A DNA stretch of 61,727 bases, filler included, from Bonamia ostreae (Eukaryota), in the NCBI GenBank assembly GCA_040357525.1. It is 14 parts of 14 records of this genome, joined end to end, with 100 filler letters (N's around TTAATTAATTAA, not from the genome) between each part and the next. Parts side by side here need not be neighbours in the genome. Positions count along the whole stretch, not along the records: positions 31,066 to 35,371 come from JBDODL010000329.1; 13 more parts are not named here. One strand, written 5' to 3'. Under the pieces are notes generated by a model. It was given only the letters and a program-made list of their open reading frames with translations, ran no database searches and was not told the DNA's origin. The position numbers and the translations under genes are program-made. Position 1 is the first letter of the stretch; the number at the start of each line of letters is the position of its first letter. Of this stretch, positions 30,881 to 58,731 are shown one piece after another.

Positions 30881-31094
30881 TTTTGCAAAATTGTTTACTA
30901 AAAGTAATTTGTTTATCAATAACACTTTTGGTGATTTTATTTTTTGCGATTTATTTTTACTGATTNNNNNNNNNNNNNNNNNNNNNNNNNNNNNNNNNNN
31001 NNNNNNNNNTTAATTAATTAANNNNNNNNNNNNNNNNNNNNNNNNNNNNNNNNNNNNNNNNNNNNTTTTTATAAAAAATGGAAAAATTCAGTTG

Positions 31095-31710
31095 TTATAT
31101 CAAAACCGCTGACAAAGGTTGTCCATTAGCTTTGATCGAATCGATGACCGATTTCGCGTTTTCGATTTCTTTCGCGTTGCAAAGCGCCCTGACCAAATAA
31201 TAATAATGTTTCTGATTTGGGTTGAAGCCGTTTATCCCCAAAAAGTAAATAAAGTCTCGCACGAGAGCAAACTTGTTTTCGTTTGCGGCTTTATTTAAGA
31301 ATTCGTTCACTTTTTCGGCGTCCAAAAGCTTGTCTTCAGAGAGCAATTGCTTGAAGCTGTCGAGCATTTCCGGCAAACTTTTTTTCTCGAAAGACGCTTT
31401 GTTTTTAGTTTGCGACAGAGGCTTGTCGAGATCGAGCCCCGAGAGCAGAAATCTGAACGCCATCTTCAACGAAAATGAAAATGCCAAAATGAACTTTGTT
31501 CGCCGTTTTCGTGTTCAGAGTTAAAGGGATGTCTTCGATTTTGGAGATGGAAGTTGACGGAAGAGAAATGTCTACCGTTTCCGGGCTAAATTTTAAAGTT
31601 TCAAACTTTATTTTCTTCCGAGTGAAATCGTTCTTGGCGAGTTTGCAGAACAATCTGTTCTGCTTCGTTTTCACAAACACATATGCCATGTTTTTTAATG
31701 TGGACGCCAT
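31095..31710 (-). CDS. Pentatricopeptide-repeat protein, probable mitochondrial (5' part)
   Basis: GFNPNQKHYYYLVRALCNAKEIENAKSVIDSIKANG PPR motif; basic N-terminus. Confidence 0.75.
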
Positions 31711-32162
31711 TTTACAAATTCGGTTTTTAGCTTTAAGCTAATTAATATATTTTTTCGTTAATCTTTATTGACTAAAAATGCCGTTTTTGTTGTTATTTTA
31801 ATTTTTGGCGAATGCAACATTTTTTTAACAAAATTTGAATTTTCAAAATTTATTTTCGGTTAAAATTTCAACGAACAAAAGGTCAATGCAATAACAATAT
31901 TTCTTTTAATTTCCAATTTACAATTTTGGGAATAACAATCTTTCAATTTCCAATTTGGGAATTTTCTGTGCTTCGTTTTCGAAGATATGGCATTTTTTCA
32001 TTTTATCCATTATAGAAAAACTCAGCTTTTGAATAATTTTACAATTATTTAAATTTTTCGAAAATTCAAAATTTAGTTTTGAAACAAATTTAACTCGAAA
32101 TTTTTAAAATTTAGTTTTTGAATTAACTTAATTGGCATAATCGCTCTTTCAAAATTTTGCAA

Positions 32163-33294
32163 ATGTTTAATGATTCAGGATTTTATGAAAATAAACTGAT
32201 CAAAACTGTACTTGTTGTCAGACCCATTCCTCCAAGCTGTAACGAAATTTTGCTGAACGCATTATTTAGAAAATTTAAAGCTGTAAATGTGCAGAAATTA
32301 AACCCAAAATCGAGAATGGTCAATAAATATTTTTTAAAATTAATTACGCAACAAATTTAGAGGTCAAAAGTTTTTGTGACGTTCAAAAACGCGCTCGACG
32401 CCGAAACAGCCAAAATGCACTTTAACGGATTATTCATTTTCAACCGAAAACTGACCGCATTTTTTTACAAAAAAAGAATTAAACTGTGTAGCGATATTTC
32501 GGTCGAGGATTATTTGCGTTCAGAGTGGTTTACCAAATTGTTTTAAATAGCAAAGACGACTCTGTGAAACTGAAACCGCCGCCACTGACAGATGAAATCC
32601 TGCTGCGCATTCAAAACGTGTTAAAGGCAAACCGAGTTATTTACAAAAAAGTGGCAAAACTCTTTTTTGAACACAAAATCAGTTTTGTTCCTCCTCGAGC
32701 GCCTCCCCCGCTATTGCCCCCGCTCACCGAGAATCAACTAGACCAAATGAGGGAGAAAATTGACAGGGACATGTCATCAGACGAAAGTGAAATGGGAGAC
32801 GGGGACGCAATCGACGACAAACAAAAGTCCAAAAAGATCAAAATCAGAAAACTCGGCGTTAGAAAAAGCAATATTAGGAAGAGAAAGCTTTCCGAACTAG
32901 TCGAAAATTTTGACTATATTTCCGAAAAGGAAATTTGGGAAGACAAGAAGCTCTACAAAATTTTTCTGAAGCAGAAGGATTACGGCATCGAAGACGAACT
33001 TAGTCTAGCCACAAAGACGCTTTATGTCAGCAACGTTTCCGAGACGACGACGGAAAAGCATTTGCAGAAAATTATAGAAAAATTGTTCTCCAAAAAAGCT
33101 CTTGTGAAAATCGACATTTTCAAGGAAGGCTTTTTAAAGGGCGTTGCTTTTATCGCGTTTGCCGAGAAGCACTTTGCGATGCTCGCTCGCCGCTTTTTGA
33201 ACCGGATGGTTCTAAACGGCCAAGCCATTTTTGTTGTTTATTTGAGAACTTTTAGGACTTTAAGAAAGCCGAACAGCTTCAAGCGCTAAAATAA
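32163..33294 (+). CDS. RNPC3: U11/U12 snRNP 65K protein-like, 4 exons
   Basis: N-terminal RRM, PPP..EILLRIQNVL..YKKV helix, Pro-rich stretch, SSDESE, C-terminal RRM TLYVSNV...IFKEGFLKGVAFIAF...VLNGQAIFVDF. Confidence 0.75.
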
Positions 33295-33337
33295 ATTTTG
33301 TATGTTTAATTTTTGTGGAAAGTTGAAACACGGAAAT

Positions 33338-33766
33338 TTATTTGTCGCTTAAAAAAATTGATTTGGGCAAAAGTTTGTTTACGGGAACATAAATTTCCAA
33401 GTTTTCTCTTTTCATCAGACTTTCGGATTTAATGCCGTCGGAAAGAGTGACAGAGAACAAACAGTTTTTGGTGGTCCCAAAAACATCGTCGACTTTCCCG
33501 ACCAGAGACTTTTTGTCCATATAGACCGGGGCGTTGAAATAAGGCACTTTTTCGTTCGTCAGTTTGCACACTAGCGAGCCCTCGCAGTCATGGACTACTG
33601 TTCCAAGTTGGATTTTCGGCGCGTTTTCGTCAAAATTCCTTCTGTTGTTCCGTCCTCGAAACGACCCCCGTCCGCGGCCGCGCTTGAAATTGGATCCGCC
33701 TCTTCCTCTCGCGGAGCGGCCACTTCCTCTGTTCGAATACCCCCTGTTGTTATTATATATCGCCAT
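33338..33766 (-). CDS. GAR1: H/ACA snoRNP protein GAR1
   Basis: RGG N-terminus; H.CEG.LVCK, KVPYFNAPVY, GKVDDVFG, KLLP. Confidence 0.95.
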   Translation of the reverse strand: MAIYNNNRGYSNRGSGRSARGRGGSNFKRGRGRGSFRGRNNRRNFDENAPKIQLGTVVHDCEGSLVCKLTNEKVPYFNAPVYMDKKSLVGKVDDVFGTTKNCLFSVTLSDGIKSESLMKRENLEIYVPVNKLLPKSIFLSDK

Positions 33767-33821
33767 CGAAATTTCACTTTTTGTCTAAATTTTTTAATCT
33801 GAAGAGTCTGCGATATATCGC

Positions 33822-35032
33822 ATGTTCTTAAAAAGGCTATTTCCGCCAAAGTGTTCCTTTCATTTCTCAAAAATGGATCCCAGCAAAAAGACAAACTCTG
33901 AAGCCCTTCTCAAGAAACTCGAAAACCTAAAAATTTCTTTCAATCTGGTAAACCACGAACCGGTGACTTCTTGCAAAGAGCATTCCGATGCTCTGAACAA
34001 CACAAATCTCGCTTTCTGCAAAAATTTGCTAATTCTGAACAAAAAATCGAAAAAGCTTTCTCTGCTCGTTCTTCCCGCCGCTTCAAACTTTTCGTTCAAG
34101 CAAATCGGCTCCGTCTTGGTTTTCCTCTTTTACCTTCTCGCTGAACAAAGGGAGTCAACGGGAACCATCTCCGACTCGCAAACGACGCCTTGTTAGAAGA
34201 AACGCTGAAGGTGGCACGAGGCGCCCTGAACCCGTTTTCTGTAATGTTCGATTCCGACGACAGAGTCGAACTGATCATCGACAAAGTTTTTCCAACTCAA
34301 AAAAGCCCATCGCGAAAGAAAAGCGCCTTCTGGCCATTCACCCGATGCACAACGACGCATCGATACTCGTAAAGTTCGGCGACCTGAAAACGTTCTTGGA
34401 AGATTTGAAGTTTTTTTGTAAACGAAAGCAAACCGTTCACCGAAATCTCTTTTGGAGATAAAATCGCTTCCGAGACAAAACTGGAAAATTTGAAAAAGAC
34501 GAAGAACAGAAAGGCTTTGGCCGAAAACGACAAGAAAGGAATCTCGTGTCGGAAAACGGAAAACTTTTCTCAGTGGTATTCCGAGTTGGTGACAAAATCG
34601 TTTCATCGAAAACTTTAGTGAGATGGTCGACTACTACGACGTCAGCGGTTGCTACATCCTCAGACCAAACAGCTGCTTCATCTGGAACCGAATAAAGAGT
34701 TTCTTCGACGAAGAGCTGTCCACCCGAGGCGTCGAAGAAGCCTACTTCCCCGTAACTTTTAGAAACATAAAGATGTTCGTCACCAAAACAGCTTTGGAGG
34801 CCGAGGAATCCCATATCGAAGGCTTCAAACCTGAAGTGGCGTGGGTCACCCGCAGCGGAGAAAGCGAACTGAGCGTTCCGCTGGCGATCCGACCGACCTC
34901 CGAAACGATAATGTATCCGTCTTTCAAAAACTGGGTTCGCTCGCACCGGGACCTCCCTCTTCGAATCGTTTGATCTTCATAAAATAGAACCAATGGTCCA
35001 ACGTGGTCCGCTGGGAATTCAAAAATCCCACC
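33822..35032 (+). CDS. ProRS: Prolyl-tRNA synthetase with N-terminal YbaK/ProXp editing domain (5' part, at least 7 exons)
   Basis: CKNL, GALNPF, HPMHN editing domain; [41 protein letters not shown]. Confidence 0.95.
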
Positions 35033-51245: not shown

Positions 51246-52870
51246 TTATTTTAATTTTCGTAATTTTCTTCCTTCAATTTTGCGTTCTTTCTTTTGTTTA
51301 ATAAATTCTTTTCTCTTTTCCATTTTCTCTTCTCTTCTTTCTCTTTTTGTCTTTTTACTTTCTTTCTTTAAAATTTCATTAAATTTCGTTTTGTTATTTA
51401 TTTTTGGACTTTTTTTATTTATCAATTTCGTTTTGTTATTTATTTTTGGACTTTTTTTATTTATCAATTTCGTTTTGTNNNNNNNNNNNNNNNNNNNNNN
51501 NNNNNNNNNNNNNNNNNNNNNNNNNNNNNNNNNNNNNNNNNNNNNNNNNNNNNNNNNNNNNNNNNNNNNNNNNNNNNNTTGTAAATTTCTTTTTGTTATT
51601 ATTAATCGAATTGCTATTTTTTGACTTTTCAATTTTCATTTTGTGAAGTCGAATTTTCCTAAAATTGTTTTTTAAAACCTCGCGTCTTCAACAGAAAATT
51701 CAACTTGCAACGAATATTTTGGATCATTAGAAATGTCTCTTATCGCATTCAACGAATCTTTGTGTTCTTCAAATTCGACAAATCCGAATCTTTTTGTCAA
51801 AAAATTTTATAAAATTTACTAAAAAACTAAATTTGAATAAAAAAATTTTCATCAAAATTGCTAAAAAAACTAAATTTGAATAAAAAAATTTTATAAAATT
51901 TGCAAAAAAAAACTAAATTTGAATAAAAAAATTTTATAAAAATTACAAAAAAAAAGCTAAATTTGAATAAAAAAATTTTCATCAAATTTGCTAAAAAGAA
52001 CTAAATTTGAATAAAAAAATTTTATAAAAATTACAAAAAAAACTAAATTTGAATAAAAAAATTTTATAAAAATTACAAAAAAAAACTAAATTTGAATAAA
52101 AAAATTTTCACCAAAATTGATAAAAAACTAAATTTGAATAAAAATATTTTCATCAAAATTGCTAAAAAAACTAAATTTGAATAAAAAAATTTTCACCAAA
52201 ATTGATAAAAAAACTAAATTTGAATAAAAATATTTTCATCAAAATTGCTAAAAAACAAAATTTGAATAAAAAAATTTTCATCAAAATTGCAAAAAAAATT
52301 AAATTTGAATAAAAAATTTTCATCAAAATTGCTAAAAATCTGAACCTTTTCGATCTAAACTTTCCAGACGAATTCAATCGCTTTCGATCTCTTACAATTT
52401 TTACTTGTTTCAAAATCGGTTTTTTGTTTACAAAATTTTCGTTTTCCTGAATAAAGTTAATATTTAGTTTTTAAATTTTTACATTTTTACTTAAAAAACA
52501 TTTCTTAATTTTTTAGCCGAATTTAAGAAAATCTGTTTTAGATCAGTTTCAGTTAATTGGACTGGAATGTTTTGGACGGAAATTCTTTTTTCTGAAATTG
52601 AAAAGTTTGGATTTTTCAGTTTTTGCATTTTCTCAACAAACGAATTTTTTCTTCTCGTCGCTATTTCCTTTTCCATTCTCTCATCAAATTGGACTAATTT
52701 TTGTTAAAATTTAGTTTTATTTGAATTGCCGTTATTCTAATTTTTAATAAAAATTTGCAAATTTTAAAGTTTGTTTTTATGAAAGACGTCCTTCTTTTGC
52801 CAAAAATAATCTTTTTTTGTCGATTTTTTGATTTTCGGTGTTTTTGCTAATTTCAAGTTCCTCTTTAGAC
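51246..52870 (-). CDS. RBM28: Nucleolar RRM protein NOP4/RBM28 (3' part)
   Basis: LFLAKEG, KLKNPNFSISEKRISVQNIP, RSKRFGFVEFEEH, VEFSVED. Confidence 0.88.
51795..52340. repeat. Intronic tandem repeat, about 43-nt unit x about 12
   Basis: ctaaatttgaataaaaaaatttt recurring at about 43-nt period. Confidence 0.95.
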
Positions 52871-57352: not shown

Positions 57353-57510
57353 NNNNNNNNNNNNNNNNNNNNNNNNNNNNNNNNNNNNNNNNNNNNTTAA
57401 TTAATTAANNNNNNNNNNNNNNNNNNNNNNNNNNNNNNNNNNNNNNNNNNNNGAAGTTCTATTTTAAAAGAGCCATTTATTAACAGCTTTTTTTTAATAA
57501 CAAACAATAT

Positions 57511-58731
57511 ATGAAGAGCTTAAAAAAATGGAAATTGGATTATTATATCCGATTGTACATTGAAAGTCAAAACAAAATCGTCCGCAGAGAACAAAAACGA
57601 GCCTGGGACATTGTCACAGAAGCTCATAGAGACAATAAGAACGCTTTCATATTTAGCACAGAAGCATTGTCGTCTCTTTATGTTCCACCAATTTTAAGCT
57701 CAATATGTCACGAAAAACCAGATTCTAGAAAAACGTTAATATTAGCGTCTTCATCGCAAGCCGCTTTTTCTGTTTACCGCAAAATAAACAGAATATCGTC
57801 AAAATTGGACATATCGGTCGGACTGATCGCTCCGGTTGAAGATTTCTACAAGAGCAAGTTGATGTTAGTACGCCTCGATCCCCGGTTAAGGCAGTTTTCA
57901 GGTGAAAAGGATATTGTCATAACTTCGGTAAGCGCAATTGAAAAAGACAACGAATTTCAATTCGATCGAATTTCGACCGTCGTTTTAGAAAAAAGCGGTC
58001 TATTTGACAAATCGGAATTCTTGAACCTTTTGGCAAAATTTCCCGATTCCGCAAAATTCATTGTCGCGAACTCCGTCACCGTCAAAAAAGATTTCAGAGG
58101 AAATAATGTTTTCGCATTCGTAAAACCCGCAGAATACTCTAAAGTTTTCAAAGTTGATAAAAACGTGTAAGACCATTCAAAAGATTGCTTTCTGTAAGAA
58201 ACACGAAAAAGTGCGCAGAATTGTTGAAATTCTTAAAAACGCGACTCATTTGGCGAAATCTGGCGTTCTAATCGTTTGTGATAACAAGGAGAATGGCAAA
58301 AATCTTGCAAATGTTTTTTAACAAAATTCAGAAACTCGAAAAAATCGGATTAAGACAGTTGGAATTAGTCGTAGACGAAGACAAAACTTATAAGCTTATA
58401 AAAAGCCTTGAAAGGCTTCAAAAAAAATTCTTTAAGATACGTAATTACGACGGTATCGACATTGAATTCAGTCGATAAGTCGGTCAATGCCGGAAACAGA
58501 ATAGTCGTCGCTTATGACTATCCGAAGACAACAGAGAAATTTTGGTTTCTGGATAAAATCGCGTCGAGCTCCGAGACGAAATCAAACAAGAAAAAATATT
58601 TCATTTCGATTTTCGATGAAGACGAATTGGAATTGGCTTCTTTCGGATTCGCATTGTCAAAATTGTGCAAGAACGAAAGTATGAACGGATTGTTAAATCT
58701 GAAGAAACTTCTTTTTAAAAAGATCAATTAA
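57511..58731 (+). CDS. Degenerate DEAD-box-fold protein (probable pseudo-helicase)
   Basis: Motif order kept (TLILASS, DIVIT, VVLEKSG, VLIVCD, YVITT, VVAYDYP) but catalytic residues missing. Confidence 0.6.

Follow-up and report, generated by a model that had tools for sequence, protein, structure and literature searches.

A divergent gene of Bonamia ostreae is a probable orthologue of the minor-spliceosome protein U11/U12-65K

In eukaryotes that splice U12-type introns, the 65K protein (RNPC3, RBM40) bridges the U11 and U12 small nuclear ribonucleoproteins (snRNPs) of the minor spliceosome, while the introns themselves are recognisable by an [AG]TATCCTT donor and a TCCTTAAC-like branch site lying 10-15 nucleotides (nt) from the 3’ end. 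Here we describe a gene at positions 32163-33294 (+ strand) of a 61,727-base stretch of DNA from the parasite Bonamia ostreae (hereafter the window), and propose that it is very probably a divergent, fast-evolving and expressed orthologue of this protein. The N-terminal part of 65K binds the U11-59K protein, and the RNA recognition motif (RRM) at its C-terminus binds the 3’ stem-loops of the U12 and U6atac small nuclear RNAs (snRNAs), as set out in passages of PMC11039992. RNPC3 belongs to the minor-specific proteins inferred for the last eukaryotic common ancestor, with RBM41 as its sister (excerpts of PMC9887622). A triad of tyrosine, glutamine and phenylalanine (YQF) has been described in the RRMs of 65K, RBM41 and the SNF proteins (passages of PMC11039992), and it is at this triad that the Bonamia protein departs most pointedly from its relatives.

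Block order and homology to 65K

The Bonamia protein resembles U11/U12-65K, for which the human C-terminal RRM (C-RRM) structures 3EGN and 5OBN are available, in the order of its blocks, in a helical expansion ahead of the C-RRM and in the placing of the C-RRM at the very end of the chain. In the 348-residue form, an N-terminal RRM (N-RRM) occupies residues 14-93 (32202-32483, with a 42-nt intron inside). It is followed at residues 117-165 (32576-32722) by a PPP sequence, two predicted helices and a proline-rich stretch, a divergent segment that nonetheless aligns to the 65K consensus, and at residues 183-188 (32774-32791) by the acidic-serine motif SSDESE, which aligns with the SS.ESEL of the orthologues. 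The helical expansion, residues ~230-261 (32915-33010), aligns with the orthologues’ FIS..EL... and with a related protein, P0003, and leads into the C-RRM at residues 262-343 (33011-33276, across a 20-nt intron). Within the C-RRM, RNP2 lies at 33020-33037 and RNP1 at 33137-33160; the string KEG.LKG.AF is present, with valine (33143-33145) at the position where 65K has glutamine. All of these parts are on the + strand, and their coordinates were converted by hand from residue numbers. Pfam RRM_1 matched the C-RRM (E 1e-6) and, more weakly, each half of the N-RRM (E 0.069 and 0.0046); it was the only family to match, a 65K-specific family being absent from Pfam. The two RRMs, the PPP-helix, proline-rich and SSDESE features and the KEG.xKG.AF signature named in the original prediction, which was made from the DNA alone, are therefore all present in the protein.

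A hidden Markov model (HMM) trained on 18 orthologues, with Bonamia and P0003 left out, matched the Bonamia protein at 118.2 bits in three ordered blocks: the N-RRM (39.4 bits, at HMM positions 6-84), the middle region (33.6 bits) and the C-RRM (52.7 bits). With an HMM of the middle region alone, the Bonamia protein scored 37.5 bits against a maximum of 12.6 among 5000 shuffles of the same residues, and no other sequence among 318 scored decoys (non-orthologue RRM hits, those of SNF type included, and open reading frames of the window) exceeded 5 bits.

Searches of the protein databases led to the same family. The protein encoded by exon 3 is 100% identical to a 278-residue public Bonamia ostreae protein, P0001, and an exhaustive phmmer search of 1.84 billion representatives with P0001 as query yielded 58 matches at E<=1e-3. 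Comparison of the full spliced model with the 57 non-self hits showed 13 to be collinear in the middle region and C-RRM, eight of these also in the N-RRM, and the remainder to be multi-RRM proteins matching through their RRMs only. Run against the PDB, a profile of the collinear hits found the C-RRM of human RBM40 (RNPC3) at 2.4e-54, compared with 2.8e-36 for RBM41 and 8e-20 for U1A, an outcome that does not place the protein with U1A/U2B’’ or another RRM family. A word-indexed search with the same profile retrieved Vicia and Vitis sequences annotated as ‘U11/U12 small nuclear ribonucleoprotein 65 kDa protein’. The top three ESM Atlas clusters are all named ‘RNA-binding region-containing protein 3’ (0.92, 0.90 and 0.90, on a scale where shuffled proteins score 0.9 in 4-10 of 100 cases).

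Phylogenetic analysis of the RRMs supports this placement for the N-terminal half of the protein. In a tree of 157 RRMs, one clade (82 in the Shimodaira-Hasegawa-like approximate likelihood ratio test, SH-aLRT) holds all 18 of the 65K C-RRMs and all 15 of the 65K N-RRMs, together with both Bonamia RRMs, P0003 and just one of 121 other RRMs, and the Bonamia N-RRM stands beside the 65K N-RRMs with a support of 74. A reduced tree of 66 rows, for which 30 of the 121 other RRMs were retained (two from a protein considered below, P0032, and 28 at random), puts the Bonamia N-RRM in a starred set with 14 of the 15 65K N-RRMs (SH-aLRT 97). The Bonamia N-RRM forms a long branch, of about 2.0.

The predicted structure is consistent with the block assignment. 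An AlphaFold2 model of P0001, computed from a 16-row alignment, has a mean predicted local distance difference test score (pLDDT) of 70.9 and exceeds 90 in the C-RRM. The middle motif is modelled as a two-helix unit (P0001 residues 52-64 and 66-78; block pLDDT 77-87), and further helices at residues 163-190 lie N-terminal to the C-RRM. The related protein P0003, which comes from a Logan contig, is 43% identical to the Bonamia protein across the C-RRM and its expansion, a sign that this region is under constraint. Homologue searches with a joint Bonamia and P0003 profile returned those two proteins only, and a search with the exon-3 protein returned only the B. ostreae protein itself.

The likeness to 65K is accompanied by marked divergence. 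Most 65K orthologues are 402-625 residues long, whereas the Bonamia protein has 348 or 356, and identity to other 65K proteins is only ~25%. The most conserved core of the 65K middle motif is heavily substituted, and, unlike its counterparts, the gene is broken by micro-introns of 20-42 nt. Taken together, the profile matches, the named relatives, the N-RRM tree and the middle motif nevertheless uphold the identification as U11/U12-65K that was first proposed, and on these sequence comparisons we hold it with considerable confidence.

Weighing the rival readings

Several observations weigh against a 65K protein at work in a minor spliceosome, and the first of them concerns RNA contact. All 18 orthologues have glutamine at RNP1 position 3, where Bonamia has valine and P0003 threonine, so that the YQF triad of the Bonamia C-RRM is incomplete: the tyrosine of RNP2 and the phenylalanine of RNP1 are kept, as in 65K, and the glutamine is replaced. 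In the paralogue RBM41, passages of PMC11039992 report that the substitution Q352A causes a dramatic loss of association with U12, U4atac and U6atac. Since a residue invariant among the orthologues has become valine, the RNA contact of the Bonamia C-RRM has probably been altered, or has co-evolved with the snRNA.

The second group of observations comes from the window itself. A scan of its 61.7 kb with Rfam models found no match to U11, U12, U4atac or U6atac; over the whole window there were no hits of any kind at gathering scores, and two irrelevant weak ones at E<=10. The original prediction had noted the lack of an RTATCCTT-type donor among the introns it could resolve, and we likewise find this motif in none of the six introns (five supported by RNA, one predicted) of the 4306-base contig that carries the gene. 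RTATCCTT occurs four times in the window, with 3.1 matches expected, always in coding, antisense or non-genic sequence. A combined scan of the window for a U12-type donor, branch site and 3’ site yielded nothing above chance (no strict candidates against 0.275 expected; five relaxed candidates against 18.6 expected).

The most U12-like element encountered, a 41-nt stretch at 57874-57914 (-), starts with ATATCCTT and has CCTTAAC ~12 nt before its AG. It lies antisense to a 228-residue open frame at 57484-58170 (+) with no Pfam match, and we treat it as a chance occurrence. A second instance of ATATCCTT, at 13827-13944 (-), is coding sequence within an open frame and not an intron donor. By eye, this open frame resembles glutamine-fructose-6-phosphate aminotransferase.

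The window amounts to ~0.5% of the Bonamia assembly, which totals 12.24 Mb with a GC content of 33.3% (PMC11069148, size from its Table 1), and its negative results are for that reason no evidence of absence. According to passages of a 2024 survey (PMC11347168), no components of the minor spliceosome were identified in Rhizaria. The paper that compares ascetosporean genomes, PMC11069148, mentions neither U12 nor minor splicing in its text or in four text-form supplements, and the text-form supplementary files of PMC11069148, PMC11039992 and PMC10639083 contain nothing on Rhizarian minor-splicing genes, files in other formats being ones that may bear on the matter. Among the full-text matches listed for Bonamia and the spliceosome, only PMC11069148 treats the genome of the parasite.

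The rival reading that best survives these data accepts the protein as a true 65K orthologue, and supposes that Bonamia has lost its minor spliceosome, or had it stripped down, and that the protein has been re-employed, either on another RNA or in the major spliceosome. The replacement of the RNP1 glutamine in both Bonamia and P0003, the heavy substitution at the point where the middle motif is otherwise best conserved and a window empty of minor snRNAs and U12-type introns would all fit such a history, as would the survey of Rhizaria and the loss of splicing genes along other ascetosporean branches reported in parts of PMC11069148. Set against this, all four 65K blocks are kept in their order, the gene is expressed, spliced and conserved with P0003, the absences come from a very small share of the assembly, and the passages of PMC11039992 mention no role for 65K beyond the minor spliceosome. 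We consider re-employment unlikely. The absence from those passages of any other role for 65K is also what makes a retained minor spliceosome the most likely alternative. The joint explanation we favour, that the protein is a 65K orthologue and that a minor spliceosome still serves a small set of U12-type introns in Bonamia, appears reasonably likely as a whole; for a working minor spliceosome in B. ostreae, considered by itself, we lean slightly in favour.

A further set of observations bears on the identity of the protein. Of the 18 orthologues in the HMM, 14 had been found with the Bonamia protein as query, so the HMM match is partly circular. In both free trees, whose rows carried no labelled RBM41 or SNF sequences, the Bonamia C-RRM falls outside the clade of 65K C-RRMs (SH-aLRT 95 and 97) and groups instead with P0003 and one unrelated RRM, from P0032. 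The 66-row tree unites the Bonamia C-RRM with P0003 (97); forcing it into the 65K C-RRM clade costs 1.76 log-likelihood units and is not rejected by the approximately unbiased test (p 0.467). The trees place the N-RRM among those of 65K, in keeping with the original prediction, and are compatible with a C-RRM either inside or outside the corresponding clade.

The RRM from P0032 comprises residues 84-166 and is the first of two in a 278-residue protein; its grouping with the C-RRMs of Bonamia and P0003 has an SH-aLRT of 95 in the 157-row tree. It has the strings TLYV.N...TTTE and AFIAF in common with them, a resemblance that could reflect chance or composition.

Comparisons of the C-RRM by itself also lean towards other families. 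A profile of the two ascetosporean C-RRMs (Bonamia and P0003) scores RBM41 at 34.7 and 34.3 bits, slightly above RBM40 at 32.5 and 32.3. A single-sequence search of the PDB with the Bonamia protein was not discriminating and did not single out RBM40. Foldseek ranked RRMs of U1A, U2B’’ and SNF at the top (E about 2e-6), and the 65K structure 5obn came 49th (2e-5), its alignment of 110 columns to the model being the longest of the listed fold hits. By fold, then, the modelled C-RRM is of the same RRM subtype as U1A, U2B’’ and SNF, and, judged on this model, fold alone fails to separate these sister RRM types.

These results, together with a public name that identifies P0001 as a 35K protein, are the grounds on which one might argue that the gene is not 65K at all, and encodes instead the paralogue RBM41, or some different protein with two RRMs (of SNF/U1A or 35K type) whose resemblance to 65K is fortuitous. 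We regard this as very improbable. In the case of RBM41 (PDB 2CPX; 9XU3 chain y), whose C-RRM is as close to that of Bonamia as the RBM40 domain is, the two-bit preference is confined to a domain that the paralogues share. Along the full length of the RBM41 chain 9xu3_y, the 65K profile finds one matching stretch, the C-terminal RRM, and the N-termini of RBM41 and 65K have no common sequence (passages of PMC11039992). The Bonamia protein carries both the N-RRM and the middle motif of 65K, and RBM41 has neither; at the level of sequence, these two blocks are what separates 65K from RBM41.

Much the same can be said of the SNF proteins, where the likeness in fold is not matched in sequence. In the sequence comparisons U1A scores about 17-24 bits, U2B’’ reaches 21.5 bits against the ascetosporean C-RRM profile, and SNF-family sequences fall 11-14 bits below RBM40 and RBM41, which reach 32-35. 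The triad-bearing RRM is N-terminal in SNF proteins (passages of PMC11039992), and the RRM that corresponds to it in Bonamia is C-terminal. The same source describes a non-aromatic residue at RNP1 position 3 as common to the SNF-type family, a trait that the Bonamia C-RRM has too. ZCRB1, scored with the ascetosporean C-RRM profile, reaches 21.3 bits.

U11/U12-35K (SNRNP35) also has an RRM and belongs to the same snRNP as 65K, and P0001 carries the public name ‘small nuclear ribonucleoprotein 35kDa (U11 U12), variant 2’. True 35K orthologues, P0021 and P0041, do occur among the weak phmmer hits, where they match through the RRM only. Human 35K scores 19.8 bits against the ascetosporean C-RRM profile, and 35K has its RRM at residues ~50-130, with a long tail behind it, unlike the Bonamia C-RRM, which ends the chain. 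P0041 and P0021 match human 35K at 2e-92 and 7e-70, and the Bonamia protein at 0.0077, again in the RRM alone. Because true 35K orthologues match human 35K so much more strongly, the public name looks like a mislabel drawn from the RRM. The words ‘variant 2’ in it suggest that a further record bears the 35K name. The public gene model also looks wrong at its N-terminus: it begins at an internal methionine and is missing the first ~70 residues, which make up the first half of the N-RRM. Our reading would correct the public record on both counts.

Least probable of all is that the gene is a decaying relic, or lies on a contig of some other small eukaryote present in the sample of infected oyster, in which case it would tell us nothing about splicing in Bonamia: the ~25% identity to other 65K proteins, the 20-nt intron retained in an RNA contig and the origin of the assembly in infected tissue, decontaminated computationally (parts of PMC11069148), could be cited for it, but the frame is open whether or not that intron is spliced, two micro-introns are spliced, the introns of neighbouring genes on the contig are alike in style (21 and 31 nt), and the local GC content of ~32-40% compares with 33.3% for the assembly.

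Gene structure and neighbouring genes

Some 14 separate contigs make up the window; they measure ~4.3-4.4 kb each and become slowly shorter along it. The spacers between them (4360-58838, e.g. 30966-31065) recur every ~4.4 kb and read 44 N, TTAATTAATTAA and 44 N, and two further gaps of 100 N lie at 51479 and 58739. Because separate contigs have been chained in this way, the true neighbours of the 65K gene are only those on its own N-free piece of 4306 bases, at 31066-35371.

Within this piece, the 348-residue open frame runs from an ATG at 32163 to a stop codon at 33292-33294 and is interrupted by introns at 32319-32360, 32528-32550 and 33236-33255. The evidence for transcription comes from a contig of sequencing run X1, which is marked only ‘RNA? 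(a guess)’ and whose RNA origin we infer from its GT..AG and CT..AC joints; since the contig skips introns precisely at such joints, we take it to be RNA-derived and the gene to be transcribed and spliced. Exon 1 (32163-32318, or 32179-32318 in the RNA isoform described below) encodes the first half of the N-RRM, as indicated by sequence, Pfam and X1. It is separated by a 42-nt GT..AG intron within the N-RRM (32319-32360) from exon 2 (32361-32527), which encodes the second half of the N-RRM and a linker (Pfam, reading frame and X1). A 23-nt GT..AG micro-intron follows (32528-32550), which is also used in the P0001 model; the X1 contig omits exactly these two introns. Exon 3 (32551-33235), supported by its open frame and the match to P0001, encodes the middle region and most of the C-RRM.

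The last intron is a predicted GT..AG micro-intron of 20 nt (33236-33255). It is spliced in the public model P0001 and retained in the X1 contig, the sole RNA contig that covers it; assembled contigs can lose rarer transcript forms. The frame remains open in both readings. In the spliced one, the last exon and stop codon occupy 33256-33294, and in the unspliced one translation stops at 33289. Because splicing yields a C-terminus, I-F-x-D-F-K, that is invariant with P0003, we keep this intron as probably genuine.

The X1 contig further reveals an alternative 5’ end. By linking 31722 directly to 32179, it removes a GT..AG intron of 456 nt (31723-32178), whose donor, GTTTTT, is not U12-like and which contains the ATG at 32163. 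In this isoform an alternative 5’ coding exon (31683-31722, + strand) supplies an in-frame ATG at 31683 and gives a protein of 356 residues, which differs from the 348-residue form only in the first few residues, N-terminal of the N-RRM. The gene model of the original prediction accordingly holds for its ATG, its stop codon and its 42- and 23-nt introns; it needs amending in that the RNA-supported isoform starts at 31683 and the 20-nt intron is left unspliced in the RNA contig. The description of the genome as one of micro-introns is well founded on this contig, where RNA-supported introns measure 21, 23, 31 and 42 nt, alongside the single one of 456 nt.

Three further open frames accompany the 65K gene. 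A divergent upstream gene (31095-31722, -) has an ATG near 31710 and RNA-supported introns of 21 nt (31586-31606) and 31 nt (31464-31494). Its 5’ end and the 65K gene’s alternative 5’ exon overlap on opposite strands, and a Pfam scan of one of its exons (139 residues) assigned no family. On the other side, a convergent gene at 33338-33784 (-) encodes the H/ACA small nucleolar RNP protein Gar1 (Pfam Gar1, E 7.6e-20), whose N-terminal part is rich in RG; the X1 RNA contig continues from the 65K gene into this one, so the two genes meet or overlap at their 3’ ends. An open frame at the end of the contig (34593-35371, +) resembles, by eye, a class II aminoacyl-tRNA synthetase of the prolyl type, and a 126-residue piece of it found nothing in Pfam at E<=0.001.

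Implications for splicing in Bonamia

We are now able to suggest how the Bonamia 65K protein may function. Its N-terminal half would contact a U11-59K-like partner, and its C-RRM would bind the 3’ stem-loop of U12, and of U6atac, snRNA. In such a scheme, Bonamia would still operate a minor spliceosome on a small number of U12-type introns elsewhere in its genome. As 65K is exclusive to the minor spliceosome, an intact and expressed copy would mark a lineage that probably keeps U12-type splicing.

A more far-reaching proposal is that ascetosporean parasites retain a functional minor spliceosome with a 65K in which the otherwise invariant RNP1 glutamine has been replaced, by valine in Bonamia and by threonine in its relative. 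This is a speculative suggestion that we think unlikely to hold. If it were true, either the 3’ loop of U12 or U6atac would have co-evolved with the protein, or the RRM would have been re-targeted.

More generally, the gene provides an entry point to the question of whether a reduced parasite, with introns of 20-40 nt, retains a second spliceosome. It may likewise give access to the minimum size that U12-type introns can reach, and to the way in which a 65K protein tolerates the loss of a triad residue.

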